64,000 nt of DNA from Escherichia phage ECOP18, in the sequence record NC_105825.1; one strand, 5' to 3'. The notes beneath the pieces were generated by a model. It made no database searches and was not told the DNA's origin. It saw nothing but the letters and a program-made list of their open reading frames with translations. Of this stretch, positions 9,170-36,833 are shown in pieces. Position 1 is the first letter of the stretch. The number at the start of each line of letters is the position of its first letter. The translations under genes and the position numbers were made by a program.

Positions 9170-9202
9170 ATAAAAAAGGCTCTGGGCAAATCACCCAGAG
9201 CC
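9170..9202 (-). terminator. rho-independent terminator upstream of tape measure gene
   Basis: ggctctggg...cccagagcc hairpin followed by U-run on minus strand. Confidence 0.5.
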
Positions 9203-9237
9203 AAGCCTCATCGTGGAACGCCCATTGGAGGAAACTT

Positions 9238-9606
9238 TTACCGTGCGCGAGATTTAGCATGTGGCTTAACGTTAGGAATTCTCCCGTTTTGCGGTTTATG
9301 CTTCTCAGCACGTTTACGTGCAGCATCTACAGCTTTAGCATCAAATATATTGATAATGTGTAGAACAAATTCTTTTTCTATAGGATCAGTAATCCCATAA
9401 ATATCAAATAAAACACCTAATGCAGCCTTATCCTTACCTATAAAAATAGGAAAGTCACCTGGTATGAAACAGTCAATTAGACTGTTATAAATATTCATAC
9501 TAATAGCTACAATAGGTGGAAAATCTTCGAGTTCAACTGGCATAGCCTTAGGATCAGGCTCTATACCCATTGACTCGCAAAGTATTAAATATTGTTGTTT
9601 AGTCAT
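9238..9606 (-). CDS. putative tail assembly chaperone (122 aa)
   Basis: Small ORF directly upstream of tape measure gene; classic chaperone position. Confidence 0.35.
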   Translation of the reverse strand: MTKQQYLILCESMGIEPDPKAMPVELEDFPPIVAISMNIYNSLIDCFIPGDFPIFIGKDKAALGVLFDIYGITDPIEKEFVLHIINIFDAKAVDAARKRAEKHKPQNGRIPNVKPHAKSRAR

Positions 9607-9667
9607 TTTAGACGCTGAGCTTTTAATACATTTGTCTGCAAAATCAGCAACAGCATCTAGGAGTTCT

Positions 9668-10072
9668 TTACGCTTTTGGGCTACGAAAAGTGTCTAAGTG
9701 GAACACTGTCTGGTTGATCCAAGAATCAAACGCAGCAGAGTTCTGCATAAGCATTACAGCATTATCGCGACTAAAAGGAACTTCAGTTTCAGGATCAGCA
9801 TCTGTTTCAATCAGCATCAGTTTTTCAACGTCACCTACTGTCAAACCGGTCCAACCTTTAATAGCTGCGTCAACGAAGGCTTCAATGAACTTATCATCAT
9901 CCTGTACCTGAATCAAAGTACCATTAACCCATTCATCGCGTTTAGCAGAAGAAATAACACGTTTAGAGGTAGCACGAGACATATAGTTAAGTTCTAGTTT
10001 AAAGTTCGGCATACCCGGGTAGGAAAGAGTAATAGTACGAGTATCGAGAGTAATATCTTTTAAATTAATCAT
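9668..10072 (-). CDS. putative tail assembly chaperone (134 aa)
   Basis: Small ORF upstream of tape measure gene, start overlaps preceding gene. Confidence 0.35.
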   Translation of the reverse strand: MINLKDITLDTRTITLSYPGMPNFKLELNYMSRATSKRVISSAKRDEWVNGTLIQVQDDDKFIEAFVDAAIKGWTGLTVGDVEKLMLIETDADPETEVPFSRDNAVMLMQNSAAFDSWINQTVFHLDTFRSPKA

Positions 10073-10968
10073 TTTTTAATTTCTCCAAAGAAATCTATTC
10101 TCACTGGGTCTGAAGAAGCAGTAGGTATAATATCCCACTCAACTCTATACACATCTGAGAAATCTAGGCGTTTTGTAATACGTGCTAAAGGAAAATCTAT
10201 AGAAATATTATTATTTCTTATATTTAAAGGTACATCGGTCTCTGGTTCGATATTGTAAACCATATCTCCAGCAAAACGTTTTAAGTAGTATAGAGAAATG
10301 GTTGCCGAAGCATTCATTTCATTTACATAAGCTCTTTTATTATTATAAATTTTATTTATATCAAAAACACTCTTATCTTCTCTCCAAGAGCATTGCTGTT
10401 GAAAAGATAAAGAAGCGGAAATAAGGCCAGGTAAGATGCTACCGTTAGTAGAAACTATTACCGGGCTATAAGACATTGCTTCACCTTGTATAATAGAAGC
10501 TGCTTCTCTATATGTAGATACCTCGGAAAATTTCCCTGATTCAATACCAACATTAAGAATTGGTATATTCTTATCTAAAGAAAAATCTACAGTAGATACA
10601 TAGCAGTTCTCAAAATATACACAGTTATTATCTTTATTTACTATATAGATATTAAACATAATAGGTTCAATGTTGTTACTATATAGTGGTAGTAAGAAAG
10701 TATTACCTTTTCTATCAAAACCTAGCCATTCGAAAAAATTAGCTTCAGTAAGTGTATTACTAAAATTTATTGCTAATGATATAGAAGAAGGAGTTTGAGC
10801 ATTTATAATAGAGTCTGCATAGTTAGTTCTACGATGAACAGTCCTACGAAGAGTCTTGAATTCCTCGTAGGAAGTCTGTATATCATAGTTTGATAGGGCA
10901 TCAAAATGAAATGCCCTACCATCATACTCAACTATAACTTTTGACTCTCGCATTAGAGAGTAGTACAT
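10069..10968 (-). CDS. hypothetical tail protein (299 aa)
   Basis: ORF track; inside structural module. Confidence 0.4.
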   Translation of the reverse strand: MYYSLMRESKVIVEYDGRAFHFDALSNYDIQTSYEEFKTLRRTVHRRTNYADSIINAQTPSSISLAINFSNTLTEANFFEWLGFDRKGNTFLLPLYSNNIEPIMFNIYIVNKDNNCVYFENCYVSTVDFSLDKNIPILNVGIESGKFSEVSTYREAASIIQGEAMSYSPVIVSTNGSILPGLISASLSFQQQCSWREDKSVFDINKIYNNKRAYVNEMNASATISLYYLKRFAGDMVYNIEPETDVPLNIRNNNISIDFPLARITKRLDFSDVYRVEWDIIPTASSDPVRIDFFGEIKK

Positions 10969-19244: not shown

Positions 19245-20561
19245 TTATTTACCACGGGAAATAGAGTAAATTCCATAGCGCAGCGCATCACAGAGGTGAG
19301 AGTTAGCATCATGACGTGGTTTTTCACGTGATAATTTTTCTTCACCTTCTTGGAAGTCCCATTTATAGTTCTGCAACGCATGGATTAATGAGGAACATGA
19401 AGCATCTACAATAATCTTGCCTTGCTGGAATAGCGCTTGCAAGCATGCTAGACCGTCTAGGACAGATTTTTTAGCTGGAGCCGATGCAATTTCATGTTCA
19501 TAAGCTAAGTCCTGACGGAACTGAGCTGCGGCAGAGTCAACAAAAACACGATCAACTTTATAACGATCTATACAGTGCTGGATATACGCAGCATGTTGCG
19601 CTGTAGTTTTCTCCGCCTGCTGGTACTCTTCTAATACATAGTAAGTATCTGTATCATAGTGGTACTTAATAGTAAGAACTGCTGTAGGATCACGATAACC
19701 AACGTCAATACCAAGCAACGTTTCGAATGCTTCATCATCTTTAAAGAAGTGACGCATACCTTTAAGGTCTTTAACATGATCAATAGCATTAAAGGTATCG
19801 AAGATCTGACCTTCGAATACAGAGAAGTCAGCCTCATATTCCTGACGGAAGTAGTTTTTACTAACGGTACGACGTGCTTCTTCGATATCATTCAGATCAG
19901 CACGTGGGTTATCACGATATGTACCATGAATAGATACCCAGTTAGGCAACGTATCATCAAATCCATAGGCATAAAACTCTTTAAACCAGTTACCACCACG
20001 AGGAGTAGAGATAAATAGAGCCTTAGAGTTTGGTTTATCTAGGGTAGGGCGCAACTGAACTCTAAAGGCATCGCCACCAACATCGGAAATTGCCGCCTCA
20101 TCGAAGATGATAAAGTCATATGAACGTCCAACTGCGGAGTCAGCCTGCGCCGCAGAAGCTAGTTTAAACAGTGAGCCGTTTGCCAGCTCAATTTCTTTAT
20201 CTTTAGCATTCTCACGTTCAGTTTGTAGGCCATACTTCTTAATAAGACCACGAATCTGAGACCATCCGATGTTGGCTAGTGAGTAGTTAGGAGCAACTAC
20301 TAGTACCTTTACATTAGGTTCCAGCAATTTTAGGAACCCAAGTGTATATGCTATAAAGGACTTGCCCACACGACGTGATACACACGCCGTTACAAAACGA
20401 TGTCTAGGGTCTTCTAGAGCATTAATAATTGCTATTTGGGGGCCATTAGGTGTAATACCTTCTTGTGCTAGTATTCCTGAAACGGGTAGACGAAAGAAAC
20501 GTTTATCTATTCCGAAATCAATAACATCTACTGTGTTAACGTAGGGTCTTGATACTTCCAT
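19245..20561 (-). CDS. terminase large subunit (438 aa)
   Basis: Walker A-like VSRRVGKS, ATPase then nuclease-like C-terminus with acidic residues. Confidence 0.85.
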   Translation of the reverse strand: MEVSRPYVNTVDVIDFGIDKRFFRLPVSGILAQEGITPNGPQIAIINALEDPRHRFVTACVSRRVGKSFIAYTLGFLKLLEPNVKVLVVAPNYSLANIGWSQIRGLIKKYGLQTERENAKDKEIELANGSLFKLASAAQADSAVGRSYDFIIFDEAAISDVGGDAFRVQLRPTLDKPNSKALFISTPRGGNWFKEFYAYGFDDTLPNWVSIHGTYRDNPRADLNDIEEARRTVSKNYFRQEYEADFSVFEGQIFDTFNAIDHVKDLKGMRHFFKDDEAFETLLGIDVGYRDPTAVLTIKYHYDTDTYYVLEEYQQAEKTTAQHAAYIQHCIDRYKVDRVFVDSAAAQFRQDLAYEHEIASAPAKKSVLDGLACLQALFQQGKIIVDASCSSLIHALQNYKWDFQEGEEKLSREKPRHDANSHLCDALRYGIYSISRGK

Positions 20562-21043
20562 TACTTCTTACCTCCAGTAGCTAGGGAAGTAATTAAGTCC
20601 ATATAGTTTTGATCCCCAGCTCCAGCAATAATATTATTCTGGATATTGGTCTGATTAGCAGGAGCACGGACGGCAGCTTTAGCTTTTTCTAGCTCCACCA
20701 TCATTTTCATCTCTTCCATTTTCATCTTGTGCGCCTTCCAGAGAATATCCATAATATCCTGGTCAGAACCCATGCCGGTTTCTTCTAGTTCTTCTAGTTT
20801 ACGCTTAATAACTTCATCTAGAACACCAAACAAACGATCTCTGTTACGGAATCCACTTTCCATAAAAATATCGTTTAAGTAGTTCTTAACTTCACTACGA
20901 TTCATAATATCTCGGAAAGCAATTTCTGACATTCCAAGGCTACGTGCGGCAGAAGGCACATCGCTACCGCACTGTAAATAAGCTTCAATTACATCCATCC
21001 CTTCAGGGGACATAAGATCTGGTACTAATACATCATTTGCCAT
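20561..21043 (-). CDS. putative terminase small subunit / DNA-binding protein (160 aa)
   Basis: Helix-turn-helix-like [16 protein letters not shown]; directly upstream of large terminase. Confidence 0.4.
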
Positions 21044-24664: not shown

Positions 24665-24785
24665 TTAGCACTAAAATGACTTTTGCCAAATTCTTTGGAT
24701 TACGTACGCGTGGGTGGGTCCACTGCCTCCGGCGAAAATACTTAGTCTGCTAACCGCCACCCCCGTTACTATTACCATGCTAACT

Positions 24786-24822
24786 GTTTCACCCTGCAAC
24801 CATTTTAATTGCAGGGTGAAAC
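24786..24822. terminator. bidirectional hairpin between convergent genes
   Basis: Perfect inverted repeat gtttcaccctgcaa...ttgcagggtgaaac. Confidence 0.5.
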
Positions 24823-24839
24823 AATTTCAACTTTAATTA

Positions 24840-25574
24840 TTACGCAACTTTTAATTTCTCCATGTATTGTTGCGGGCTGCAACTATATTCTGCGCGTTCT
24901 TCCTCGGTCATACCTTCCCAACATAATTTCAAACGATCAGCTAGGAATTGATAATCATTATCATCGTCGAGGGATTCATCAATAAAGGTTTCACCTATCA
25001 ATGTAACCCCAATCGATAGAATATCGTTAACGGCTTGTGCGTCCAGCGTTTTAAATCCATATGACGCTGCCGCTGATAGCACGCCTTTATGATCATCAAT
25101 CATTGTAAAATCAGCGTTCGGATATAACTGTTTAAATAACTCAAAATAATAAGATTTATACACGGCGTCCTTGCTGTGGTATATTTCGCTAACCTTATCA
25201 GCTTTAAAATATTTATGCAGTGTGTCGCGGGAAAACACGCGGATATTGCTTTTATCACGACCACGCAAGCCTTGTTTGCGCAGGAAGTAATAATCTGATT
25301 TGCTCATTAGTCGAGCGGTGCAAATAATGTTTAAAGTATTTGCGTCATTCATGCACTGGCGCATGTATTCAACTAATGGTAATAATGTATCTTGCATTAT
25401 TAAATGATGTTTGCAGGCTTCATTTTTATACTTATTTAAATCTAAATTGCCCTCACTATCAAAGCAAGGCGCTACACGGTGGAAAGAATTAACAATAGTG
25501 CCGTCTAAATCCCAAATCATGACGCGGGAAATATGCGGGAAGCTGCGGGAAATATTCATAATAGCTTTATTCAT
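24840..25574 (-). CDS. dmp: 5'-deoxyribonucleotidase Dmp-like, HAD hydrolase (244 aa)
   Basis: HAD motif I (IWDLDGTI); size matches T5 Dmp (from memory). Confidence 0.65.
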   Translation of the reverse strand: MNKAIMNISRSFPHISRVMIWDLDGTIVNSFHRVAPCFDSEGNLDLNKYKNEACKHHLIMQDTLLPLVEYMRQCMNDANTLNIICTARLMSKSDYYFLRKQGLRGRDKSNIRVFSRDTLHKYFKADKVSEIYHSKDAVYKSYYFELFKQLYPNADFTMIDDHKGVLSAAASYGFKTLDAQAVNDILSIGVTLIGETFIDESLDDDNDYQFLADRLKLCWEGMTEEERAEYSCSPQQYMEKLKVA

Positions 25575-25661
25575 TTTGTTACGTTCTCCATTTAAGGGAT
25601 TAGATTAATTCAATCTTGCCAGCTAATTATATTAGATTAGCTGGCAATGTTCAATTAACTA

Positions 25662-26054
25662 TTAATTAGTGAGGCCATACGCTAGCGCGTCACCAATAAA
25701 GCTAAGATCTTCACCATGTACGCTAGAACGAATCCCCGCGCAAGTATAAACCATTGCGCTAGCTTCTGGATTGCAGACCGGACACGGCTTAACAACTGCA
25801 AACGCTAAACCGGATTTAAGCGCATCAATAATAATTGTTTGCACTGTCAAAGTATCAGCGTAAACGCCTTTTGCTTTTGTATGGCTTGCCACTTTGCCGG
25901 TATCATAAGCAAAGGTAGTAACCTGCAAAGCGTCGTTATAATTCAGCAAATCAAAATTAACTTGCCCCGCCTCGACGTGGTAACGTTCGCCGTTAGAATA
26001 AACCAGAACAATGGAAGACTGAGCGCGGTCAAATGGAATATTTTGCTTTTTCAT
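25662..26054 (-). CDS. hypothetical pre-early protein (130 aa)
   Basis: ORF track. Confidence 0.4.
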   Translation of the reverse strand: MKKQNIPFDRAQSSIVLVYSNGERYHVEAGQVNFDLLNYNDALQVTTFAYDTGKVASHTKAKGVYADTLTVQTIIIDALKSGLAFAVVKPCPVCNPEASAMVYTCAGIRSSVHGEDLSFIGDALAYGLTN

Positions 26055-26093
26055 ATTTATAAAACTCCGGTTAGTTTAATATAGGGATTTAAT

Positions 26094-26384
26094 TTATTGT
26101 ACTGTAATACTAGGAGAATGATTAGTTAATTCTAGTGGCACTTTAAACGTTTCTTGTGATAGCGTACAGGCATCTATAACAATAGCCCCCGCTTTACCTA
26201 CTACTAGCACACCATTATAAACAGGGATAATAAAATCACCTTTATGAATTGGATAATCGGGATATTCTAGGAGGTCAGAACATGCGCGATATACTTCCCC
26301 GTTTATATAAGCATCTTGATAAGAAATATCATCCAGTAAAGAGGATTTAGGGGAAAATTCATTGCTAGGTAAATTAATTTTCAT
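26094..26384 (-). CDS. hypothetical pre-early protein (96 aa)
   Basis: ORF track. Confidence 0.4.
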   Translation of the reverse strand: MKINLPSNEFSPKSSLLDDISYQDAYINGEVYRACSDLLEYPDYPIHKGDFIIPVYNGVLVVGKAGAIVIDACTLSQETFKVPLELTNHSPSITVQ

Positions 26385-26394
26385 ATTGCGTCAC

Positions 26395-26652
26395 CTATTT
26401 AATAATAATCTGCATCTGGTACGGCGTTAATTCACCGTTTACGGGTAAATTATTATCACTTAGCCACTCATAAAAAGCGCTATCGTCATCAAAAGGAACA
26501 ACATCATTATCACGGGAATCGACGGAAATAATGCCATCAGTATTAGTTTTGGCGGCTAGGATAGGCCCGAAGCTGTAAACTTTATCGGATTCCATTTCAT
26601 CGGGTGAAATGAATACTTTTTCGTCCAGTGTTTTGGGTAATGTAACTTTCAT
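26395..26652 (-). CDS. hypothetical pre-early protein (85 aa)
   Basis: ORF track. Confidence 0.4.
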   Translation of the reverse strand: MKVTLPKTLDEKVFISPDEMESDKVYSFGPILAAKTNTDGIISVDSRDNDVVPFDDDSAFYEWLSDNNLPVNGELTPYQMQIIIK

Positions 26653-26704
26653 TTTTGTGACTACTGAAATAGCGGCTATATTTCAAGCCGCCGCCCTGAT
26701 TTAA

Positions 26705-28369
26705 TTACGCAAAAAATTTGCCGTTTTTAAAGTCGATCAAAGTACGCTGGCCGTTCGCATAGGTAATAACATGCGTTTGCGTCCAGCTTGACGCGCCAAC
26801 GTTGTAACCCATGTCCAGACTACCAGCTACGCCAGCGGTATATACCCCGCCGTAAATGCTTGCCGTATGAGTATGCCCCGTGTTTAATTTGCCCAATTTC
26901 TTAAACTGTTTAGGATTGCCACGGCTGCCGTTAATGCCGTTGTGACCGTGTACGCCGCATTCAATGCCTGCAATTTTAAATGATTGGTCAGTTGTTAGGA
27001 AAATGGCGTTAAACTCGCAACCTGCAACCTTACGCAGCGCATAATCTAGCACGTTGAAAGTATCGTCTTTTTCTGCAATAGCTCCGTAAATCGCGGCATT
27101 TAGGCGGTGATACAGTTCCGCGTTGGCTGGATCGTCCTTAATGTTAGCATTACGATCATCTAACCAACGGGATAGCGCCAGATCGTGGTTTGATTCTACA
27201 ATGATCGTTTGAGAAAAATCGCGCTCCATTGATTCCAGTACGCGCCCCGTATCGATGAGATCATCCAGCACTTTATCACGTCCGGCGGCGTATTGTTTTG
27301 CTAGGAATACACCGGATGCACGGTTATGATGGTTGCGAGATGTAAAATCATGCACGTCATGGATAAACTGATATTTTGGTTTAAGAATATCAAGCAAGCT
27401 ATTTTCGCCAGCCCATGACGCAGCGGCGCAATCGTCATCTAATTTTTCGGCGTGAATATCGCCATACTGCAAGCCTAAAACATGCCCCGATGTTTCATAA
27501 CATCCGGCGGGAGTAGCGCAAACATTCAGATCATAAAATACCCCGCTTTCATCCATCGTTTCAAGCTGGCGAACAAAAAATTCCCCGTCCTCGTCGAACT
27601 CGACAACAAGCGCACCGAAATTATGAAGTGCTTCCGCTTTTTGTCCTGCTTTCTGCTGGATGTAATTTTTTAGCGTTGCCGTGCCAGTTGAATACATACG
27701 GCGCACTACTTCACCTTTTAAAGCTGGCACGCTTTCAGCGGTGATTTTAGCGTGACCAATTGCCAGCCCCTCAATATTGAGCGCCGTTGCAGTTTCTGCA
27801 AATCCTGAAAGCGGGTAATCTGCGGTTGGCAAAACATTAATTTCAGCCATGAAAGCAAAACGGCGGTTATTTAAAAACACGTTTTTGCTGCAAATATATT
27901 TATCAAATGCGGGATCGTATTTGATACCGTCTGCACCTTCTCCATTCTGGAAGCCGTTTTTATTATAAATATACTTAGAAACAAGCAAATCAGCACCGAT
28001 ATATTCAGCGAATTTTTCCAGACTTGCTAAAAAGTTTTTATGCGGGAAAGTATTATTTTGAATCGACGTAATAATAAAGCGTTTACCCTGTTTTACTTCC
28101 CATTGCTCAACCGTACTAGAAACAATTCCCGCCGCTTCTGGGCGCTCATCGTTTTTAATGGCTTTTGTTACTTTTGCCGCTTTCGGTTTAGCTGGTTTAT
28201 TTGCTTCCAGCCAGTCGCAGATAGCGGTTGAATGCTTCGTTGTATCGTAGACCGCTTTTGATATATCGTCGCAGACTTCCAGTTTAGTAGCGCGCAGACG
28301 TTTACCATAGAAATTAAAGTCAGCGGCCATTTTCAGGATAACGGTTTGTTTTTCTGCGGAAATAATCAT
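26705..28369 (-). CDS. A1: A1-like pre-early protein, metallophosphoesterase fold (554 aa)
   Basis: Calcineurin-like motifs (GDIH, SNHD, GHTH); size and position match T5 A1 (from memory). Confidence 0.65.
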   Translation of the reverse strand: MIISAEKQTVILKMAADFNFYGKRLRATKLEVCDDISKAVYDTTKHSTAICDWLEANKPAKPKAAKVTKAIKNDERPEAAGIVSSTVEQWEVKQGKRFIITSIQNNTFPHKNFLASLEKFAEYIGADLLVSKYIYNKNGFQNGEGADGIKYDPAFDKYICSKNVFLNNRRFAFMAEINVLPTADYPLSGFAETATALNIEGLAIGHAKITAESVPALKGEVVRRMYSTGTATLKNYIQQKAGQKAEALHNFGALVVEFDEDGEFFVRQLETMDESGVFYDLNVCATPAGCYETSGHVLGLQYGDIHAEKLDDDCAAASWAGENSLLDILKPKYQFIHDVHDFTSRNHHNRASGVFLAKQYAAGRDKVLDDLIDTGRVLESMERDFSQTIIVESNHDLALSRWLDDRNANIKDDPANAELYHRLNAAIYGAIAEKDDTFNVLDYALRKVAGCEFNAIFLTTDQSFKIAGIECGVHGHNGINGSRGNPKQFKKLGKLNTGHTHTASIYGGVYTAGVAGSLDMGYNVGASSWTQTHVITYANGQRTLIDFKNGKFFA

Positions 28370-28459
28370 AGTAATAAAACTCCATTAAAGGGATTAGATT
28401 AATAACGGCAATATTGCCAAATATAACGCCTCAAATAATAGGCGTTATAATTTGCAACA

Positions 28460-28657
28460 TTAATTTAAAGGCACTAGGCTAGAACTAACACCACAAGCAA
28501 CGGCAGCGATAAAACAAAGCAAGCCCAAACGTTTTGCTAATTTAGATTTACGTTTAAAATAATATGAATCTAAATCATTTTGAAAATAAGCGAACAATAA
28601 CGAGGCCGCCATAATAAACAAGCCTAGAATTAATGATTCAGTAGGATAAAAGATCAT
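28460..28657 (-). CDS. small membrane protein (65 aa)
   Basis: Two hydrophobic helices. Confidence 0.35.
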   Translation of the reverse strand: MIFYPTESLILGLFIMAASLLFAYFQNDLDSYYFKRKSKLAKRLGLLCFIAAVACGVSSSLVPLN

Positions 28658-28749
28658 TTTAAAAACTCCTGATTTAAGGGAAGAAAATAACTATCGCTAA
28701 ACAGTTATATTATTGCCCCCTCACTAAAAAAGGGGGCAAGGTATAACTA

Positions 28750-29157
28750 TTATTCGCCTGCGGCTTGTTTTACTTCCTCGGCAACGCCTAACAATTGCGC
28801 TACTGCGTCCAGCGTTTCAAGTTTTGCACTTTCAAGGCTTGCCAGATCATCGGCATCTTTGATAATGCCGGAATCGATAGCGTGTTTTGCAATAACGCGT
28901 ACATAATGAGCTTTGCGGATTGAACTACCGCCGCCAACTTTGCGAGGCTTATCGCTTTTTTGATATGCTTTTGCGCTGGTCAATTTTGACCGAACGGATA
29001 CGGGAGAAGCCGCGCCTACTGCTTTTGCAATCTCTTTCAGGCCGTCGCTATTTGCGAAATCTAAACCGTTTTCATTAATTAACTGTTGATACATGGAAAC
29101 AGCTTTCTGAGTGTTTTCTTCATTCCATGCGAATTTTGCGGTTTTAGCGTTAGTCAT
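28750..29157 (-). CDS. A2: A2-like pre-early DNA-binding protein (135 aa)
   Basis: Position upstream of A1-like gene; basic central segment. Confidence 0.45.
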   Translation of the reverse strand: MTNAKTAKFAWNEENTQKAVSMYQQLINENGLDFANSDGLKEIAKAVGAASPVSVRSKLTSAKAYQKSDKPRKVGGGSSIRKAHYVRVIAKHAIDSGIIKDADDLASLESAKLETLDAVAQLLGVAEEVKQAAGE

Positions 29158-29253
29158 GATGTAACTCCTATTAGTTTAATTTAAGGGATTAGATTAACTT
29201 AATGTTAATCGTTATATCCCCCTGAAATAAGGGGATATAAAGTTAACACTAAT

Positions 29254-29505
29254 TTACAATACAGCTTCCCATTTTTCGTTGCGTTGAACAACCTTTACAA
29301 CATCGCCGGATTTAACGCGAACGCTAAAAACGGGCTTGCCGTTGTTACTACGTTCATTTTCAGCGTATACCGCGTCGATTGTATCGAACGGCATAAGCGC
29401 CGCACCTTTAATACGTTCGGCCTTTCCGGTTAATTCATCCGTTTTAGTAACGAAAGGAATGAAGACGGATTGACCAACTTTCGGCGCGGTAATAACGTTT
29501 TGCAT
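29254..29505 (-). CDS. hypothetical protein (83 aa)
   Basis: ORF track. Confidence 0.4.
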   Translation of the reverse strand: MQNVITAPKVGQSVFIPFVTKTDELTGKAERIKGAALMPFDTIDAVYAENERSNNGKPVFSVRVKSGDVVKVVQRNEKWEAVL

Positions 29506-29735
29506 AATATAAACTCCTAGTTATTTGGGGATTGTTCCGCATTACCTGCTAGAAAGTAACAGCAGGTAATAAGTAACAATCCGCTCGCCAATATAATCAA
29601 TTTTAAAGAACTCCACGTAGGCCGCTATATCCCGTTAGGGGGCGGGATGCATTATGGTAAGCACCGACCGTCAAATTTTATCAAGTTATCGCTCTTATCG
29701 AACTGGGTACATCTTAAAACCTATCGGCTAGGTTG

Positions 29736-29939
29736 TCAAACAATTTTTTGCAATTTTTTATGATTTTCTTTTAGGTCAATCATAATATTTCGCCAGATCA
29801 TTTCCAGACCTTGCTGGCGACCTTTCTTGTACTGCGTGAATCTATATCTTACTGATCTTTGAGCTACTGTCAACAAATTTTTTGTTTTGCTATCTAGTGC
29901 CTTAATAGGCTTGCCAGTGATCAAAAGCGTTTGTTTCAT
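29736..29939 (-). CDS. hypothetical protein (67 aa)
   Basis: ORF track. Confidence 0.35.
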   Translation of the reverse strand: MKQTLLITGKPIKALDSKTKNLLTVAQRSVRYRFTQYKKGRQQGLEMIWRNIMIDLKENHKKLQKIV

Positions 29940-30386
29940 ATCGTCGATTCCTTATAATGAATAAGTTTACCGCCGATAGGCTTTAAGATGTACCCAATTT
30001 TTAAAGAGCGTGGCGGTAAACTTCCCGCCGTGTAGTTCGTCATTGCCGCCCTACGAGATAAATAATAGGGGATTCCCGAAAATGGCGCAACCTTATTTTT
30101 GTAAAGAAATGTAAAGGTAAAACTCACCGGACACCGTGCGGCGACGGCCTAAAATTAAAAGAAACGGGCGCGCGAATACCACAAAATAAAGCAAATAGGC
30201 AAGTAATTTTTTCATTTATATTTGCTTTGCCCTACTTGACAAAATCTAAAAAGCTCGTGGTAACGATAAACGGCTTATCCCCTTATGATGGGATGGCTAA
30301 AAACTTTATTGCGTTCTGGAGCGTTTTAGGCGCATTCTAGCCTTGTTGATAACTTATCCCCAAAAGCAAAAATGAAATTTTCCTAG

Positions 30387-30395
30387 TTATCCACT
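30387..30395 (+). promoter_or_regulatory. DnaA box-like (ttatccact)
   Basis: 8/9 match to TTATCCACA; inverted partner agtggataa at 30411-30419. Confidence 0.45.
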
Positions 30396-30497
30396 TGACT
30401 TTTATTTTCCAGTGGATAACTACTTATTTTATGAAATAAATTAATTGACTTTTATTTGTTAGTATGCATCGGAAAGATAGCAGACTAATAATTGCTA

Positions 30498-30512
30498 GAA
30501 TGATAATCATGC
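30498..30512. promoter_or_regulatory. Fur-box-like site (gaatgataatcatgc)
   Basis: Contains AATGATAATCAT, the core of the Fur consensus GATAATGATAATCATTATC. Confidence 0.35.
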
Positions 30513-30518
30513 TGGTGG
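30511..30518 (+). other. Chi octamer GCTGGTGG
   Basis: Exact match; second copy at 33872-33879, same strand. Confidence 0.4.
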
Positions 30519-30683
30519 ATTGTAACGACCTGAATTATTAGCAGACTATTAATCACGGAAAAATCTCATTAGCCAACTAACTATTTCATGATATATAATA
30601 TACATATAAATTAATGAGAAATAATAACTATAAGAAATCATCTAGCTAAGTGAGAACCACTATCATTTAAGTTATACACAAAG

Positions 30684-30692
30684 TTATCCACA
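30684..30692 (+). promoter_or_regulatory. DnaA box (ttatccaca)
   Basis: Perfect consensus 9-mer. Confidence 0.55.
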
Positions 30693-30763
30693 GCACTTTT
30701 TGACTTGACACGATAGGCGGCGATATAAGGACTTTTACACAGACTTATCTACAGGTTATTCCA

Positions 30764-30779
30764 CTGTATAAATATACAG
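30764..30779. promoter_or_regulatory. LexA (SOS) box-like palindrome ctgtataaatatacag
   Basis: CTGT-N8-ACAG with AT-rich spacer. Confidence 0.45.
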
Positions 30780-31046
30780 GGTAAAAAGGTAGTGTTAACA
30801 ACTGCAATCAATTTTAAGCGGCTTAAATCGCATTCTAACGAGCTAAACGCTGCGGGGTAATATTAAAGTAAAGCCTTAATGCGTCGCCCTGGTGGCTTCG
30901 CCGTGGTTTGCTCTTTATTGCACCGCTGCGCGGTTAGCATAAAAATAGGCGCTAGGCAAGGAAAATAAAAAGGTAAAATAATATTTGCCTATGCTAGAAA
31001 TTTACCTTTATCATTCACTCACCGATTAACGAGGGAGGCCGAACAA

Positions 31047-32057
31047 ATGAGGCTTTATAAACCTGATAATGCCACCGTTTTAAAAGGTGCATTGCGCAAC
31101 CTGCTGGATGGTAGCAAGTCAACCAGCATTAAACATTTTATTAACAAGATTGAAACTATTCATCAAAACTTTTTTGATGATTATGACGCTTATGATATGG
31201 ATAGTTTTCTACCCTTATATAGACAAGGGGCAACGCTAGTTTTATATAATCGGGATTGCCATATCTTTACAGGCAGGGGAGCGGGGCCGGATACCGATTT
31301 TATTGTTGCGCAGGGTAATAATATTGTTGCGTATCATAGCAATTCAGGCCGTCAATCATTTAATATAAATAGTTTTGAGCTTATTGGACTTGATCTGATA
31401 AATGGACTTTCTAGCATTGAGGGATTTTTAGATGTTATCTGGAAGTATTTACCCGCTGGATGGCATAAGCCGGATAACGACGGATCTCAATATACCGGTA
31501 TAATGGCTTTTGATGGCGACGGTAATTTTTTGTTACCACGGGAGCTATACCCATATATTTATGATGGGGATATAGAAAGCGCTGGTTTTTCTTTCTGGAA
31601 AGATGAAGATCAGATTATTGACAGCGTAGAAAACCATGCTGTAAATTCTAACACTCAAAGCGTTAACACTCAAACTACTGAAAACAAAGGAAAAAACACT
31701 AGGACCAAGATTGCTAACATCGTTGCCGCTAATAAATCCGCCGTTGTAAATGCTGCAAAACTGGAAGCGGGTAAAATTGCACTGACTCAAATCACGAAAG
31801 TAGCGGCTAAAAAAGCACCGTTCATGATTAAAGGCTATATTGATACGCCGATTGGTCGAGTAGTGATTGCTAACCTGCTAAGTGTAGCGGTTGACCAGTA
31901 CGCACCGACTAACCAGAAAGCGAAAGCGGTAGCAGGGGCGGCTATGGAAGCGGCAATGGTGGAAATGGTGCAAAGTTTTAACATCGCTGAAATGATTGAT
32001 GAAATGGTGAAAGGTATTGATATTTCTACTTTTACCACTAGCACCGAAATCGAGTAA
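31047..32057 (+). CDS. hypothetical protein (336 aa)
   Basis: RBS gagggagg upstream; N-terminal globular part, NT-rich linker, amphipathic Ala/Val/Lys-rich C-terminus. Confidence 0.6.
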   Translation: MRLYKPDNATVLKGALRNLLDGSKSTSIKHFINKIETIHQNFFDDYDAYDMDSFLPLYRQGATLVLYNRDCHIFTGRGAGPDTDFIVAQGNNIVAYHSNSGRQSFNINSFELIGLDLINGLSSIEGFLDVIWKYLPAGWHKPDNDGSQYTGIMAFDGDGNFLLPRELYPYIYDGDIESAGFSFWKDEDQIIDSVENHAVNSNTQSVNTQTTENKGKNTRTKIANIVAANKSAVVNAAKLEAGKIALTQITKVAAKKAPFMIKGYIDTPIGRVVIANLLSVAVDQYAPTNQKAKAVAGAAMEAAMVEMVQSFNIAEMIDEMVKGIDISTFTTSTEIE

Positions 32058-32066
32058 TAATATTTA

Positions 32067-32096
32067 GTGGGGATTATTTCCCCACTTTACTATTCC
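32067..32096 (+). terminator. hairpin plus T-rich tail
   Basis: agtggggattatttccccact followed by ttactatt. Confidence 0.45.
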
Positions 32097-32122
32097 CTTG
32101 TTAATTAATAGGAGGCTAACTA

Positions 32123-32617
32123 ATGGCTGAGGAAAAATACGGCTTCTCGCTAGGAGAAGTGAGCACGGCTAAACATGATATGATCATTTTAGTCGATTGT
32201 CATACTGGCTATTGCGGAGAAGGGAACACCGAAGAATACTTTGTTCCTGCTGGTACGGATCTGGACGCTTTCGCTCATGAAATGGCTATTGATAATGCTT
32301 CTCGTTTTGGTAGCGATGGCTATGAAGACGAAGAAACTGGCGAATGGTATGAAAATGAAAACGTATATGCAAGCCTTTATCATTATCAGCTAAGTAAATC
32401 CGGCACATATGTAAACGGCGGCGATCCTATTAATTCCGTCATGAAATTAATTATTAAATATGGTGGCGTCGAGATAATTGATAACAAAGCGGTAATATAC
32501 GCAAACCGATTAAAACAGCTTGTTTATATTCCTGATAGTACCCGATGGGATGAATACGCTGTTTTGCATGACGAATTGAAACGATGTTTCAATATTGAAT
32601 CCCTGCAAGTAGTCTAA
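32123..32617 (+). CDS. hypothetical acidic protein (164 aa)
   Basis: RBS aggaggc; Asp/Glu/Tyr-rich, no motif. Confidence 0.6.
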   Translation: MAEEKYGFSLGEVSTAKHDMIILVDCHTGYCGEGNTEEYFVPAGTDLDAFAHEMAIDNASRFGSDGYEDEETGEWYENENVYASLYHYQLSKSGTYVNGGDPINSVMKLIIKYGGVEIIDNKAVIYANRLKQLVYIPDSTRWDEYAVLHDELKRCFNIESLQVV

Positions 32618-32722
32618 TGTAAAGTTTTGTAAAGGTCGCCTTTTATGGTGGCCTTTTTTGTTATAATGCTTTTACACCAAAACGGTGGATTGAAAATTTT
32701 CCCAAAAATTTGGAGGCTTAAA

Positions 32723-32953
32723 ATGGTTGCTTATTCTTCTGCTAGTCATCTGTTTACCGCGCAAGGCTGGGTATCTAATCGTGCTGTCATCTATGAAATG
32801 GTGCAGGAGTTCGGCATTGCTAAAACTTATAATACCATTCAGGAACTATATAACGCCGATAAAATCGATCAGCAAACGGCTGGCTTTTTACTGGATACCC
32901 TGAAAGCTGAACATTGCACTAAAAAACAAGCCGCTAAAATTGTTTTAATGTAA
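32723..32953 (+). CDS. hypothetical protein (~76 aa; start moved to ATG with RBS)
   Basis: ggaggcttaaaATG at 32723; ORF track start 32645 lacks RBS. Confidence 0.45.
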   Translation: MVAYSSASHLFTAQGWVSNRAVIYEMVQEFGIAKTYNTIQELYNADKIDQQTAGFLLDTLKAEHCTKKQAAKIVLM

Positions 32954-33002
32954 TTAATAACGGGGCGTTACTTTCGCCCCGATAACTAGGAGGCTATCAC
33001 AA

Positions 33003-33150
33003 ATGGTTATTTTTCGATCTATTTTAGCGGGTATCTTGGGCGCTATTTTATCGTTATTTGCGATAGCTTTCGGCGTTCACGCTGTTATTATTGGCGCTGG
33101 CATTGCTGCGTTTTCTTATCTGCTGGGCTGCATGACTAGTAAAGGAGAAT
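33003..33150 (+). CDS. small membrane peptide (49 aa)
   Basis: Not in ORF track; strong RBS taggaggct; two hydrophobic helices. Confidence 0.45.
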
Positions 33151-33154
33151 AAAA

Positions 33155-33367
33155 ATGATCCGCAACGTTTCCCTTGCACGTTCGAAAGGCTTTAAGCTGG
33201 TGGATGTTAACACGTTCGAGCGGGAAGATTGTAAAATCGAATATGTAGCACGTAACAAAAATGCCTTTCGTGTTACCGAGAAAAAATTTGATAAGCGCGG
33301 CAACGTGATAGCTGAAACAGTTAAACATTTTGCCACCTTTTACGCTGCTTTTCGTGGGGTATTATGA
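33155..33367 (+). CDS. hypothetical protein (70 aa)
   Basis: RBS aaggaga; basic. Confidence 0.45.
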   Translation: MIRNVSLARSKGFKLVDVNTFEREDCKIEYVARNKNAFRVTEKKFDKRGNVIAETVKHFATFYAAFRGVL

Positions 33368-33486
33368 TTCAGCAAATTAAAACGGCTTTTCGTTTTTGGG
33401 GCGTCCTGCCTTCAATTGGTTTTATTCTGATAATTATTAGTCAGCTAATGATCATCGGCGGAACTATTTGGGAGCTATGCAAATGA
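33364..33486 (+). CDS. small membrane peptide (40 aa)
   Basis: Not in ORF track; start overlaps previous stop; single TM helix. Confidence 0.35.
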   Translation: MIQQIKTAFRFWGVLPSIGFILIIISQLMIIGGTIWELCK

Positions 33487-33827
33487 TAATTTATGAAGGC
33501 AATCGCTTTGTTGCTAATTACCGTCCGGCATTATTAGCAAACTATTTAAACCAGCTTTCCCCAGCTTATAAGGGCGTTATTAATATTTATGAGGGAAAGG
33601 CGCATTATAAAATTAATGCGGTCGTTGCCCGTGAACTAGCATTTCAATTTTTGACCTTTGCATCTTGTGACGTTCAGGTTATGGGTGAGGCATTAATCGC
33701 GGAAAATGAAGAGGATTTTATTAATATTTTCCGTAAGGTATGCACTGAGCGCTTGATAATGAAAGGCGCGTATATTCAATCAACTGCGGAAAGTATTGAA
33801 ACAGCATTTCGAAAGGTGGCGCAATGA
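33483..33827 (+). CDS. hypothetical protein (~114 aa)
   Basis: ATGA overlap with previous gene; ORF track frame 33468-33827. Confidence 0.45.
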   Translation: MIIYEGNRFVANYRPALLANYLNQLSPAYKGVINIYEGKAHYKINAVVARELAFQFLTFASCDVQVMGEALIAENEEDFINIFRKVCTERLIMKGAYIQSTAESIETAFRKVAQ

Positions 33828-33927
33828 GATTATATATTTTCGTTGGTAATGTTAAGGCAGCTAATGATTCCGCTGGTGGCGACAACGTTCGCCACCATTG
33901 GCAAAAATATATTTACTAGGAGTTATT

Positions 33928-34035
33928 ATGTCTGGTTTAATGTTTACCTTATTAGTAGTTTATAGCATAATTACGGCAGGAATAGTAACTTATGTTACTA
34001 GTAAAATTTGGCCGGGAATATATGGTAATTTTTAA
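33928..34035 (+). CDS. small membrane peptide (35 aa)
   Basis: Not in ORF track; RBS taggag; single TM helix. Confidence 0.35.
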   Translation: MSGLMFTLLVVYSIITAGIVTYVTSKIWPGIYGNF

Positions 34036-34050
34036 TAACGGAGCGTTATT

Positions 34051-34254
34051 ATGAGCAATAAAATTATTGTAACCAAAATCAGTACAATGGTTGATGTTTT
34101 TTACGTGCCAGATACGCCGGAGAATCGGCAAGCGGTCGAGCGGGGCGAATATGATAAAGTGATTTATGATCACGATGGTTATTATCAGTATTTGGTGGAT
34201 TCCTACGGGGAGGAGGAGAAGATCACGCATCGACTACCGGAGGAGGGTTTATGA
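34051..34254 (+). CDS. hypothetical acidic protein (67 aa)
   Basis: ORF track; RBS acggag. Confidence 0.45.
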   Translation: MSNKIIVTKISTMVDVFYVPDTPENRQAVERGEYDKVIYDHDGYYQYLVDSYGEEEKITHRLPEEGL

Positions 34255-34406
34255 AACGATGGTTTAATCACTGGTACAAGCGGTTTTTAGTACGCCGTCG
34301 CAAGTCTAGGCATCAAGATGAGTGGCGGGAGTGGGCAAAGCGTAACGGTTGCCCGCTACTATAATAATCACGGGGCGCAACTATCGGGAAGTGCCCCCAA
34401 TTCTCA

Positions 34407-34427
34407 AATGAGAATGATTCTCATTTG
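34407..34427. repeat. Fur-box-like palindrome, copy 1
   Basis: aaatgagaatgattctcattt. Confidence 0.5.
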
Positions 34428-34620
34428 ACCGCGCCCGCGATGGTTAGCCTGCTAATGATTAGGGTGTTACGTGTCGCCTTGTGTGATCGTTAGCGAGCTA
34501 ACTAATTTTCAAGCCTCCTCCAATTTTGCCCTTGTTTTAGTATCTCCACCAAAATTAAACGCGTTAGAATGCGATCTAGGACGTTTTAACGCTATATTAG
34601 AATTATTCACTGCGTAGGAA

Positions 34621-34640
34621 TACTGTATATTTATACAGTA
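34621..34640. promoter_or_regulatory. LexA (SOS) box-like palindrome tactgtatatttatacagta
   Basis: CTGT-N8-ACAG, close to consensus TACTGTATATATATACAGTA. Confidence 0.5.
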
Positions 34641-34648
34641 GGATAAGC

Positions 34649-34657
34649 TGTGGATAA
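34649..34657 (-). promoter_or_regulatory. DnaA box (tgtggataa)
   Basis: Perfect reverse complement of TTATCCACA. Confidence 0.55.
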
Positions 34658-34721
34658 GTCTGTTAATAACACCCCAAAATGGCTAGGATTCTGTCAAGTC
34701 AAATCGTGCTGTTAATAAGTC

Positions 34722-34730
34722 TGTGGATAA
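34722..34730 (-). promoter_or_regulatory. DnaA box (tgtggataa)
   Basis: Perfect reverse complement of TTATCCACA. Confidence 0.55.
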
Positions 34731-34796
34731 CTTAAATAATAGTGTTTCTCACTTCCGTTCTTAAATACGAATCACTATCATTTGCGTTCCACTTTC

Positions 34797-34815
34797 TAAA
34801 TGAGAATCATTCTGC
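34797..34815. repeat. Fur-box-like palindrome, copy 2
   Basis: taaatgagaatcattctgc. Confidence 0.45.
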
Positions 34816-34901
34816 TTTTTAAAGGAGAATCGTTTCACTTCCTGAATAATTCTCACTTCCATTCTTAAATGCGAATTATTATCATTCTCATTCCGCTTTT
34901 T

Positions 34902-34930
34902 AAATGAGAATCATTCTCATTATCATTCGC
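34902..34930. repeat. Fur-box-like palindrome, copy 3 (perfect 19-bp palindrome AATGAGAATCATTCTCATT)
   Basis: aaatgagaatcattctcattatcattcgc. Confidence 0.5.
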
Positions 34931-34964
34931 ATTCAGGCGAGCAGGGCAATTGCCCTGCGCTTTT

Positions 34965-35632
34965 GTGCAAATCCGACATTGCTCCACGGGTGTTACGTGC
35001 GGGCGTGTATGTGCGAATCCGACAATTTTTGGTAGTGTGCAAATCCGACCCGAAAAATTTTTATAGTGTGCAAATCCGACAATGAATTTTCCTAAAAACT
35101 CCAGCAATCACGAACTGCGTTCGAATCCTGTGGGGTATGTGCAAATCCGACACGGTTTTTCTAGGATTAAGATGTGCGAATCCGACAAGATTTTTGTGAC
35201 TTCGATTGGAGGGTGTGTGATTGTGTGAGTTTGGGGAGAAGTTGAGAGAGCGAGAAAAATTTGAGGGAACTGCGGGAGGGGCGCATGTTTGGTGCGGAGC
35301 ACCTGATTTGCGGGGATTTTGGGGAAGAGTTGAGAAGATTTGGGTTAATTTGAGATTAGTGCAGAAAAAGTAAAATTTTATTAGCTAAATGGAGCAAAAT
35401 AGCTTGACAAGTGAAAATTCTTGTGGCTCTAAAAACTCAGGCAATCATGGGCCTTCGGCCCGAAATAATGCTGCCATTTTCAGGAGATTATGTGTCCATG
35501 AAAACTCAGGCAATCATGGGCCTTCGGCCCGAAATAATGCTGCCATTTTCAGGAGATTATGTGTCCATGAAAACTTAGGCAATTGTGCAAATCCGACCAG
35601 TTTTTAAACTTATGTCAGTGTGCAAATCCGAC
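34965..35632 (+). repeat. dispersed direct-repeat family GTGC(A/G)AATCCGAC(A/C), eight copies
   Basis: Copies at 34965, 35011, 35037, 35068, 35139, 35174, 35585, 35619; each followed by a T/A-rich tract; spacing irregular. Confidence 0.7.
35432..35569 (+). repeat. perfect tandem duplication, 2 x 69 bp, each unit with GGGCC-TTCG-GCCC hairpin
   Basis: Unit aaaactcaggcaatcatgggccttcggcccgaaataatgctgccattttcaggagattatgtgtccatg repeated head to tail. Confidence 0.8.
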
Positions 35633-35677
35633 AGTAATTTCTGGAAATGTGTTTTGGAAAAATGCCCTCTAGAAATA

Positions 35678-35749
35678 ACCGCCCTCCCAATAACCGCCCT
35701 GTATTAAACCGCCTAGTATATGTTCCTAGAAACTTAGGAGAACCGCCCT
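35678..35749 (+). repeat. short direct repeats aaccgccct (3-4 copies)
   Basis: Copies at 35678, 35692 and 35741, plus a degenerate copy at 35707. Confidence 0.5.
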
Positions 35750-36077
35750 AGAAAGAGGGAGTATTTCGTGAGAACTCTGGAGTTTCTAGGAAAGTGTTGT
35801 GCCATCCTAGCAGAAGAGCGGCAACCGGTGTATCATCTTGAACACAAATATTGCCTTTAAATATTTTTAGTTATTTAAAAGTAAATATACCCCCATTTCA
35901 TGTGAGATTCCTCGTGGGGCGCGTGAGTATTACGGAAGAACTCTAATATTGGCCCGCGCTAAGACTAGCCGCTATAGCACAGACGCAAATAGAGTTGTAA
36001 TAATCATCGCCCCTAGAGTTCACAATAAGAGTTATTGTTAATCTATGAGATTATTATAACATACATTTTTAATAACG

Positions 36078-36833
36078 TCAAGAAGATTTTACTAATGTTT
36101 TTGGATTCTTCTTGGCTTTGAGATATATCCCTTTAGATGCTAGATAGATATATGTTGCTAGAAATGAAGATTCTGATCCCGATTCCTCATAGGTTAACGT
36201 ACCTCTAGGGTATTTATTTGTTTTAGGAGCATAGTTAAGCACAGCCGCAGTTAATGACCCTAATCCTAGAACATCTGCAAGACGTCTAAAGGTATTCTCT
36301 TCATCATGGATAGCATAAAGAATGTTATCTTCAATATCCGTTAATGGAATTTTACGGGTATGAGATACTGCAATCCGTGCTATCATAGCTCCAATTGTTT
36401 TATTAATATCCTCGAAAGAAACACTCTCCATATATTTTAGAGGGGGAAGATGGTCATATTTACATTTCTTAGGTGGAATAAGAAGTTGTTCAGGATAAGC
36501 CTCTAGTGCCTGACGAACGTTTGCTTCTGGATATGTTGGTAAAGGTTCATCTATAATAACATGTAAGAAATTAGCTCTGTGCCCCTTAGCAGTTGGATCT
36601 AAAGACTTCAATATTTTGTTCATATCCACGTATGAATACGCTAGATCTGCTTGAGGAGCATTAATATCAAACTTAATCTTCTTACCTTCCCATTTAGCAG
36701 GGAACATCTCACAAACAAACATTACTGCATGTTTAACATCTGGCTCTAGCTCTGATAGACATTTGTGATCTGCTGTTACTGCTAAAGCGAGTATATTCTT
36801 AAATTTATTAGCTTCTTCAATCATATATCCCAT
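36078..36833 (-). CDS. hypothetical early protein (251 aa)
   Basis: ORF track; no motif recognised. Confidence 0.45.
   Translation of the reverse strand: MGYMIEEANKFKNILALAVTADHKCLSELEPDVKHAVMFVCEMFPAKWEGKKIKFDINAPQADLAYSYVDMNKILKSLDPTAKGHRANFLHVIIDEPLPTYPEANVRQALEAYPEQLLIPPKKCKYDHLPPLKYMESVSFEDINKTIGAMIARIAVSHTRKIPLTDIEDNILYAIHDEENTFRRLADVLGLGSLTAAVLNYAPKTNKYPRGTLTYEESGSESSFLATYIYLASKGIYLKAKKNPKTLVKSS

Follow-up and report, generated by a model that had tools for sequence, protein, structure and literature searches.

At the concatemer junction of phages T7 and T3, pacB, a hairpin-end intermediate formed at a palindrome beside the terminal repeat, and a class II pause/termination site are found, and the pac and cos sites of other phages carry recognition repeats that flank the cut (pacL-pacC-pacR in SPP1, cosQ-cosN-cosB in lambda). 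In T5, a classical model phage, the delimiting and regeneration of the 10-kb repeats as well as the terminase cut site are still undefined, and the non-coding region at the repeat boundary has so far been discussed solely in terms of the injection stop signal (iss). Here, we analyzed a perfect 69-bp tandem duplication in a 64,000-nt stretch of DNA (the window) from Escherichia phage ECOP18 (NC_105825.1). Each 69-bp unit carries a stem-loop, with the repeat starting 2 nt beyond the right boundary of the direct terminal repeat (DTR). What has been duplicated is a structured signal at the T5 terminal-repeat boundary that is conserved and has hitherto escaped annotation; as an event, the duplication is ordinary, minor, and recent.

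The locus shares with the T7/T3 junction the exact direct terminal repeats, the single repeat per concatemer junction, injection that starts with the left end, and a palindromic or termination-like signal beside the repeat boundary. In contrast, there is no sequence similarity, T5 uses the host RNA polymerase, and its repeat comprises ~10 kb versus 160 bp in T7. By analogy, the T5 stem-loop may recall the T7 junction hairpin/pause site, which we regard as a lead. As in pac and cos sites, the cut is located in the most conserved segment, short direct repeats (iterons) occur on both sides (six left, two right), and the site sequence is lineage-specific and changes where the small terminase subunit TerS diverges. 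However, the iterons are conserved even at ~40% TerS identity (Vibrio phage Thalassa), which argues against a role in TerS specificity, and terminase binding to the iterons or the hairpin is putative. An A-tract, a GC stem-loop, and a T-tract between convergent units, together with covarying stems, are also found in rho-independent bidirectional terminators, but the T5-type stem is broken by large internal loops, its T-runs are short or offset, and its loops are invariant. The letters TTCG at the tip of the GC stem resemble the C(UUCG)G tetraloop; however, the T5-type loop is a 3-nt TTC, the UUCG register leaves C-C mismatches by the closing pair, and other lineages carry ACA and TCC loops. 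T5 contains a single copy of the unit, as do all other relatives, whereas ECOP18 contains two.

A tandem duplication next to the right end of the terminal repeat

The window derives from a T5-like phage (Demerecviridae, Tequintavirus) with 20 tRNA genes clustered at 53–61 kb, and the nearest record was that of Escherichia phage vB_EcoS_MM-1 (99.8% over 34300–36100). Late genes, a single terminal-repeat copy, and early genes follow each other in this order, and the window is therefore a permuted, repeat-collapsed assembly. The 69-bp repeat is located in a non-coding region of ~1.65 kb, on which rightward pre-early genes from the left and leftward early genes from the right converge. Direct string comparison revealed 100% identity of the adjacent head-to-tail units 35432–35500 and 35501–35569, in full agreement with the first-pass annotation of the window, and Tandem Repeats Finder reported a repeat at 35432–35583 with a period of 69, 2.2 copies, and a score of 297. 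The 14 nt at 35570–35583 (AAAACTTAGGCAAT) represent a partial third copy that matches the unit start with one mismatch. Among perfect full-unit tandem duplications with periods of 20–200, the 69-bp pair was the sole case in the 64-kb window. The locus comprises the following features.

24718..35429, plus strand: direct terminal repeat, one collapsed copy of ~10.7 kb, mapped to the left and right terminal repeats (LTR and RTR) of MM-1
35404..35429, plus strand: left-of-cut context with TTGACA (35404–35409), a variable stretch of 12 nt, and TGTGGCTC (35422–35429)
35430..35435, plus strand: A-tract TAAAAA, directly outside the cut
35432..35500, plus strand: copy 1 of the 69-bp unit (Tandem Repeats Finder), with a homologous single copy in T5, MM-1, and ~445 relatives
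35501..35569, plus strand: copy 2 of the 69-bp unit, the extra copy private to ECOP18, with its junction contiguous in no other record
35432–35445 and 35501–35514, plus strand: 14-bp repeat A1 (unit start); A1 and A2 are 69 bp apart in single-copy relatives
35570..35583, plus strand: 14-bp direct repeat A2, AAAACTTAGGCAAT, one mismatch to A1
35440..35475, plus strand: two-tier stem-loop, copy 1, with outer helix GGCA 35440–35443/TGCC 35472–35475 and inner hairpin 35449–35461; supported by folds and covariation, invariant in 36 T5-type variants
35509..35544, plus strand: two-tier stem-loop, copy 2, with outer helix 35509–35512/35541–35544 and inner hairpin 35518–35530
35476–35483 and 35545–35552, plus strand: T-tract ATTTTCAG, matching the A-tract

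With both RNA and DNA parameters, ViennaRNA folded the inner palindrome into GGGCC-TTC-GGCCC, in which a stem of 5 bp closes a loop of 3 nt. The hairpin with a GC stem predicted in the first-pass annotation was recovered in this way; its GGGCC-TTCG-GCCC tetraloop, which does not give consistent pairing, has to be replaced by the TTC loop closed by GGGCC/GGCCC. Within the window, GGGCCTTCGGCCC occurs in the two unit copies and nowhere else. The duplication gives rise to two complete stem-loops, of which the first alone keeps the TTGACA/TGTGGCTC left-of-cut context, and it displaces the right-hand iterons by 69 bp (about 6.6 helical turns) from the cut.

The last base of TGTGGCTC (35429) is the right end of the DTR, with the cut at …TGTGGCTC|TAAAAACTCAGG…, a decisive context that the first-pass annotation had overlooked. 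Both the LTR end (10407) and the RTR/record end (118039) of MM-1 map to window position 35429. The homologous end, …TGTGG(C/A)TC|TAAAAACTCAGGCAAT…, is annotated in two independent T5 records, Shivani, EscoHU1 (Epseptimavirus), and Yersinia phiR2-01; the vB_EcoS_I14 record ends at the same homologous base, and six full-length IMG/VR genomes have their last base at this site. TGTGGCTC marks the repeat end in the Slocum and Sugarland lineages as well. The Slocum end, determined by PhageTerm, is 2 nt off the homologous site. A Sugarland-type genome of 123 kb has two repeat copies that match without a difference for at least 10,257 nt, with divergence setting in exactly past TGTGGCTC. Altogether, the end at this boundary is supported by seven annotated genomes and six genome termini, and the virion DNA end is made 2 nt before the unit, the position expected of a terminase cut site. 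With the TGTGGCTC|TAAAAA motif, genome ends can be assigned in the many permuted or repeat-collapsed T5-like assemblies.

In T5, where the cut falls at 10,219|10,220, the unit is homologous to ~10,222–10,290 of NC_005859, between copies 6 and 7 of direct repeat D. It is located within the region named 'Repeat Region 3' by Davison 2020 (9194–10409 in AY587007 coordinates), in the 270 bp that reach beyond the LTR. The T5 annotation places the injection stop signal immediately left of this region, and the iss is located ~500–900 bp left of the unit. Both T5 records are without a feature for the stem-loop and the 14-bp flanking repeats, and the Davison preprint assigns them no role.

A separate observation concerns the annotated terminal repeat of Klebsiella phage Sugarland (MG459987, locus 839). 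Its PhageTerm-predicted end, CCTGCGC|TTATGTGCGAATCCGAC at record position 10138, is the homologue of the T5 nick site, and the conserved TGTGGCTC| end, which is the true end according to the 123-kb Sugarland-type genome, is found ~350 bp further to the right. PhageTerm probably took the nick for the terminus, in which case ~350 bp of the repeat would be missing from the annotation.

The duplication is private to ECOP18

A 261-nt query across the feature matched 445 phage records, and each listed match covered 189–193 nt of the record versus the 261 nt of the query, corresponding to one copy. The duplication junction as a single contiguous piece was found in none of 439 records. In IMG/VR, 25 loci showed the one-copy spacing and none the two-copy spacing, and a general pattern of a core followed by a core gave no match in IMG/VR or in metagenomes, with the window itself matching as positive control. 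One copy each was also present in 13 metagenome contigs that had been picked by an anchor internal to the DTR instead of the core. Sampling of relatives via the neighboring 251-aa protein returned three close loci and no more. The duplication is absent from all relatives examined; it is therefore private to ECOP18 and recent. Of the two options considered in the first-pass annotation, very recent duplication or concerted maintenance, the copy numbers bear out the former and lend no support to the latter, every relative being single-copy. A paired protein-binding site as the normal state, also proposed there, is likewise not supported, the pairing being restricted to ECOP18.

Where only one copy is present, AAAACTCAGGCAAT and AAAACTTAGGCAAT flank the unit at a distance of 69 bp, and every relative carries 14-bp direct repeats (AAAACTYAGGCAAT) at this distance. 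The period of the duplication equals the A1–A2 spacing of 69, which is a signature of slipped-strand mispairing or unequal crossing-over. Most simply, the extra copy would have originated by slippage or unequal crossover between the 14-bp repeats. An assignment of the 14-bp flanking repeats to Davison's 'direct repeat A' (DRA) was discarded, since DRA copies 2 and 3 are located ~100 nt upstream. The ECOP18 duplication is useful as a natural variant of the conserved single-copy element.

The stem-loop is conserved and covaries between lineages

Mean pairwise identity was determined for 18 sequences across 1.65 kb. In the non-coding region it peaked at 0.95–0.99 at 35379–35483, centered on the cut, and anchor-free windows at 35424–35483 gave values of 0.97–0.99. 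No other non-coding segment of the region is as conserved as the first ~50 bp of the unit; the last ~20 bp of the unit are freely variable and rewritten in some lineages, with 1-nt indels around the invariant blocks. In 36 distinct variants, not a single change was seen in AACTCAGGCAA, GGGCCTTCGGCCC, GAAATAATGCT, and ATTTT, not even in the loop and internal loop, and the anchor spacing was fixed at 97–98 nt in all 36 of these single-copy variants. In the element, an outer helix of 4–5 bp encloses a GC hairpin whose loop has 3 nt; the element is placed between the A-tract and the T-tract and begins 8–11 nt outside the right end of the terminal repeat. Three hairpin types, corresponding to three lineages, were distinguished.

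T5-type: inner hairpin GGGCC-TTC-GGCCC, outer helix GGCA…TGCC
Klebsiella phage Sugarland: inner hairpin CACGGTG-ACA-CACCGTG, outer helix CAAGC…GCTTG
Serratia phages Slocum/Kamaji: inner hairpin CGGC-TCC-GCCG, outer helix CACCA…TGGTG

Both helices were recovered when each of the three lineages was folded independently. Using a loop-anchored table of the three lineages (T5, Sugarland, and Slocum types) for the counting of pairs, inner pairs 1–4 were Watson–Crick in all of them, with two-sided changes at pairs 1, 2, and 4. Loop length was 3 nt throughout, and in T5 and Sugarland alike the loop center fell at +26 from the cut. In all three lineages the structure was preceded by an A-tract and followed by a T-tract; in Sugarland, TTGACA…TGTGGCTC|TAAAAAA is found to the left and TTTCAGGAGAT to the right of the structure. 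Within T5-type phages the inner stem is invariant and hence shows no covariation, and the changes in the outer stem are one-sided, some being wobble-compatible and two breaking a pair. T or C opposite G at −1 and C or T opposite G at +14 are wobble-compatible on the plus strand alone. Judged from the compensatory changes across the three lineages, the structure is real and selected. The comparison of folds and covariation across related phages, which the first-pass annotation had suggested as a check, turned out positive for both helices and points to a selected nucleic-acid structure.

Two further candidates for hairpin lineages were rejected. In Vibrio phage Thalassa the repeat was found, but its small hairpin with a TTC loop is ~90 nt out, and equivalence is not demonstrable. 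A putative third hairpin type, TTGGCG-AAA-CGCCAA, in eight IMG/VR contigs was a chance match inside an ORF (open reading frame) of an unrelated GC-rich virus: these near-identical contigs (L061, L063, and L068–L073; 33000490xx–33000499xx) matched CTTGACAAG-N10-TGTGGATC by chance within an ORF ending in …PLDKWPRVWIKKPLAKRQ*. L059 and L075 were discarded along with them. The chance match shows that an 18-base pattern can mislead. A search with Rfam 15 identified only tRNAs in the window and nothing at E ≤ 1 in 34300–36200.

A candidate signal for the right genome end

We tentatively favor a role of the stem-loop as a cis signal that makes the right genome end at packaging. The stem-loop, TTGACA-N12-TGTGGCTC, and the GTGCAAATCCGAC iterons would together form the cutting signal for replicated concatemers. 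By the usual last-in-first-out rule, the order of injection is linked to the start of packaging, and because T5 injects its left end first, the right end would be packaged first. Replicative circles of T5 carry one repeat. Extruded or single-stranded DNA, or a nascent transcript, would be the form in which the hairpin is read by the terminase; the covariation of the outer helix across internal loops implies intramolecular pairing in single-stranded DNA or RNA.

In support of such an end signal, the element is fixed beside the cut, and the conservation peak straddles the cut. The bases of the element are invariant within a lineage and replaced wholesale between lineages, the pattern expected of a specificity site. 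Phages with the T5-type hairpin share at least 92% identity in TerS (160 aa; 20561–21043, minus strand, in the window); for Sugarlandvirus, the value drops to 68% and applies to residues 1–101 only, and TerL identity is 88% over the full length. The conservation peak at the right end, the covarying stem-loop, and the change of hairpin type with TerS together yield a concrete candidate for the end signal. The mosaic Klebsiella phage vB_Kpn_3 (MZ079855.1) is T5-type left of the cut (GCAAAATAGCTTGACAAGTGAAAATTCCTGTGGCTC) and Sugarland-type right of it, and its hairpin type goes with the unique region encoding the terminase, not with the repeat. Judged from this mosaic sequence, the terminal repeat and the unique region behave as exchangeable modules with a joint at or near the genome end.

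Several points weigh against this role. The covariation is derived from three lineages only, and a single unit folds no better than shuffled sequences (z −0.6 to −1.0), by which an exceptional thermodynamic stability of the unit was dismissed. Thalassa has no GC hairpin at +26, and the divergence of TerS may merely reflect its faster evolution. At the left DTR boundary neither a similar element nor a shared motif was found, so the two ends would need different making; a 10/12 resemblance between AAATACTTAGTC and AAAACTTAGGC was dropped as a left-boundary motif, being absent in EscoHU1. Finally, the A- and T-tracts around the stem-loop and its position amid convergent gene blocks are equally terminator-like.

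Taken as a whole, the explanation that slippage duplicated an end-forming stem-loop would account for the locus with a chance that we put somewhat short of even. A more specific version, in which the stem-loop is the undefined signal that fixes the right end and starts packaging and its folded strand would be read by TerS in a lineage-specific manner, is rather doubtful. If the end-signal reading is true, ECOP18 would be a natural two-site variant with signals 69 bp apart, which could give two alternative right ends or show which half-site suffices.

Alternative explanations

According to the main rival reading, the element could be a bidirectional intrinsic terminator or insulator between pre-early and early genes that inherited its position at the repeat end, with the duplication providing tandem terminators, an explanation that we consider worth weighing, if on balance unlikely. 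A hairpin between an A-tract and a T-tract in three lineages would fit, all the more as the minus strand of Sugarland is near-canonical, with the outer helix GCTTG followed directly by TTTTTT. The flanking genes converge on the region, the stems covary with loop sequences that differ among lineages, the wobble-compatible changes are on the plus strand, and the stretch from the last early gene (36078) to the unit contains no other minus-strand candidate. However, a consensus scan of 34300–36200 for rho-independent terminators (GC-rich stem of at least 5 pairs, loop of 3–8 nt, at least 5 T within 8 nt, starting 0–2 nt past the stem) made no call at the unit on either strand. The GC hairpin is without a T-run, ATTTT follows the weak outer helix and not the GC stem, and the T-runs are 1–4 nt from this 4–5-bp outer helix, which closes large internal loops. 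In addition, pre-early transcripts already meet the T5-annotated terminator and the hairpin at 34941–34958, ~500–1000 nt upstream (the annotated terminators of Lindwurm and VAH1 map to the latter, not to the unit), and on the other side the element is located 500–640 nt past the last early gene. A plain terminator would not need the loop and internal-loop bases that are invariant in the 36 T5-type variants, and the motif occurs nowhere else in the 64-kb window.

Misassembly or a sequencing error, in a region rich in repeats and beside a coverage step at the DTR boundary, is an improbable source of the extra copy. In favor of such an artefact, other records and contigs lack the duplication, coverage doubles in repeat-collapsed assemblies at the DTR boundary 2 nt away, and the window is a collapsed, permuted assembly of this kind. 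However, A1 has a conserved position in all relatives, which accounts for the proximity to the boundary, and the period of 69 is the natural spacing of the 14-bp repeats, as expected of homology-driven slippage and not of k-mer overlap or misjoin. A collapsed DTR makes no artificial junction at the duplication site, and short tandem repeats are usually collapsed, not expanded, by assemblers.

A binding or cleavage site for the pre-early A1/A2 proteins or a host protein has very little likelihood. The element is palindromic and lies within T5 Repeat Region 3, to the right of the injection stop region, and a specific cleavage site right of iss was predicted by Davison; however, Davison's model requires the site in both terminal repeats, and the element is outside the repeat and absent from its right-hand copy. 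The covariation of the outer helix across internal loops is hard to fit with duplex-DNA binding, and the hairpin type of vB_Kpn_3 follows the unique region, not the A1/A2-encoding repeat.

The weakest proposal, that each unit is a structured RNA of ~40–45 nt transcribed from TTGACA (35404–35409) and a weak −10 element TCTAAA at an 18-nt spacer, starting near the outer helix, ending at the T-tract, and doubled in dose by the two copies, would be in line with the promoter-like invariance of TTGACA in three lineages followed by 12 variable nt, the covarying structure with wobble changes fitting the plus strand, and the T-tract after it, but it is highly improbable given that the −10 hexamer is not acceptable, the promoter scan is silent at the unit, copy 2 is without the TTGACA context and hence promoterless, no Rfam family matches at E ≤ 1, the fold is not above shuffles, and a literature search turned up no T5 transcriptome.

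Direct repeats and hairpins of the non-coding region

The iterons of the proposed end signal are arranged as follows.

34965..35186, plus strand: six iterons GTGC(A/G)AATCCGAC (T5 'direct repeat D'), 256–465 nt left of the cut
35585–35597 and 35620–35632, plus strand: two more iterons, right of the unit, moved 69 bp farther from the cut by the duplication

The iteron corresponds to DRD (direct repeat D) as named in AY587007 and by Davison 2020. All eight copies of GTGCAAATCCGAC in the window are on the plus strand, six left and two right of the cut. The iteron is kept in Sugarland and Slocum too, and in Thalassa (record position ~121,185), whose TerS is ~39% identical, it is found 12 nt outside the repeat end. 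Its retention where TerS is only ~39–40% identical suggests that a conserved factor other than TerS binds the iterons. TGTGCAAAT is one base from TGTGNAWAA, the DnaA-box consensus in its reverse complement.

The hairpin GCAGGGCAATTGCCCTGC followed by GCTTTTGTGC at 34941–34959 was the sole consensus terminator call in the region. It is homologous to the T5 'major DNA single-chain interruption' (…CCCTGCGC|TTTTGTGCAAATCCGA); thus, the first iteron coincides with both the nick site and a terminator-like hairpin. A second covarying structure in the non-coding region, the hairpin GGTGC-GGA-GCACC at 35291–35303, is located ~130 nt inside the repeat end and shows compensatory changes (GGTGC…GCACC versus GGCGT…ACGCC) with variable loops.

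On the minus strand at 36053–36081, a near-consensus sigma-70 promoter was identified (TTGACG, 17 nt, TATAAT, upstream TG; 11/12). It overlaps the stop of the last early gene (36078..36833, minus strand) and points left into a non-coding stretch of ~600 nt; it could drive a non-coding transcript that ends at the stem-loop. Near the left genome end, the first structured element is a 14-bp perfect inverted repeat at 24786–24822 (GTTTCACCCTGCAA … TTGCAGGGTGAAAC, 9-nt loop), 68–105 nt inside the left end of the repeat. It is placed just downstream of a leftward dmp-like gene, of which it is probably the terminator.

Spurious open reading frames at the repeat boundary

The duplication is spanned by an ORF.

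35389..35607, plus strand: spurious ORF of 72 aa arising from the repeat; T5 lacks the start codon, and relatives carry 1-nt indels

A coding function of this ORF was rejected, as already presumed in the first-pass annotation, which had regarded it as a by-product of the repeat. It has no PHROG match, its ATG is missing in T5, where no gene is annotated at this place, and frame-breaking 1-nt indels within the region are tolerated among relatives. The duplication may serve as a warning that gene callers put spurious ORFs at the repeat boundary. In MM-1 (PV577657.1), about a dozen 'hypothetical proteins' of 30–50 aa tile the non-coding region at 9229–10950, one of which covers the unit (10367–10516); T5 annotates none. 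These tiled small proteins are gene-caller artefacts that will spread via protein databases.

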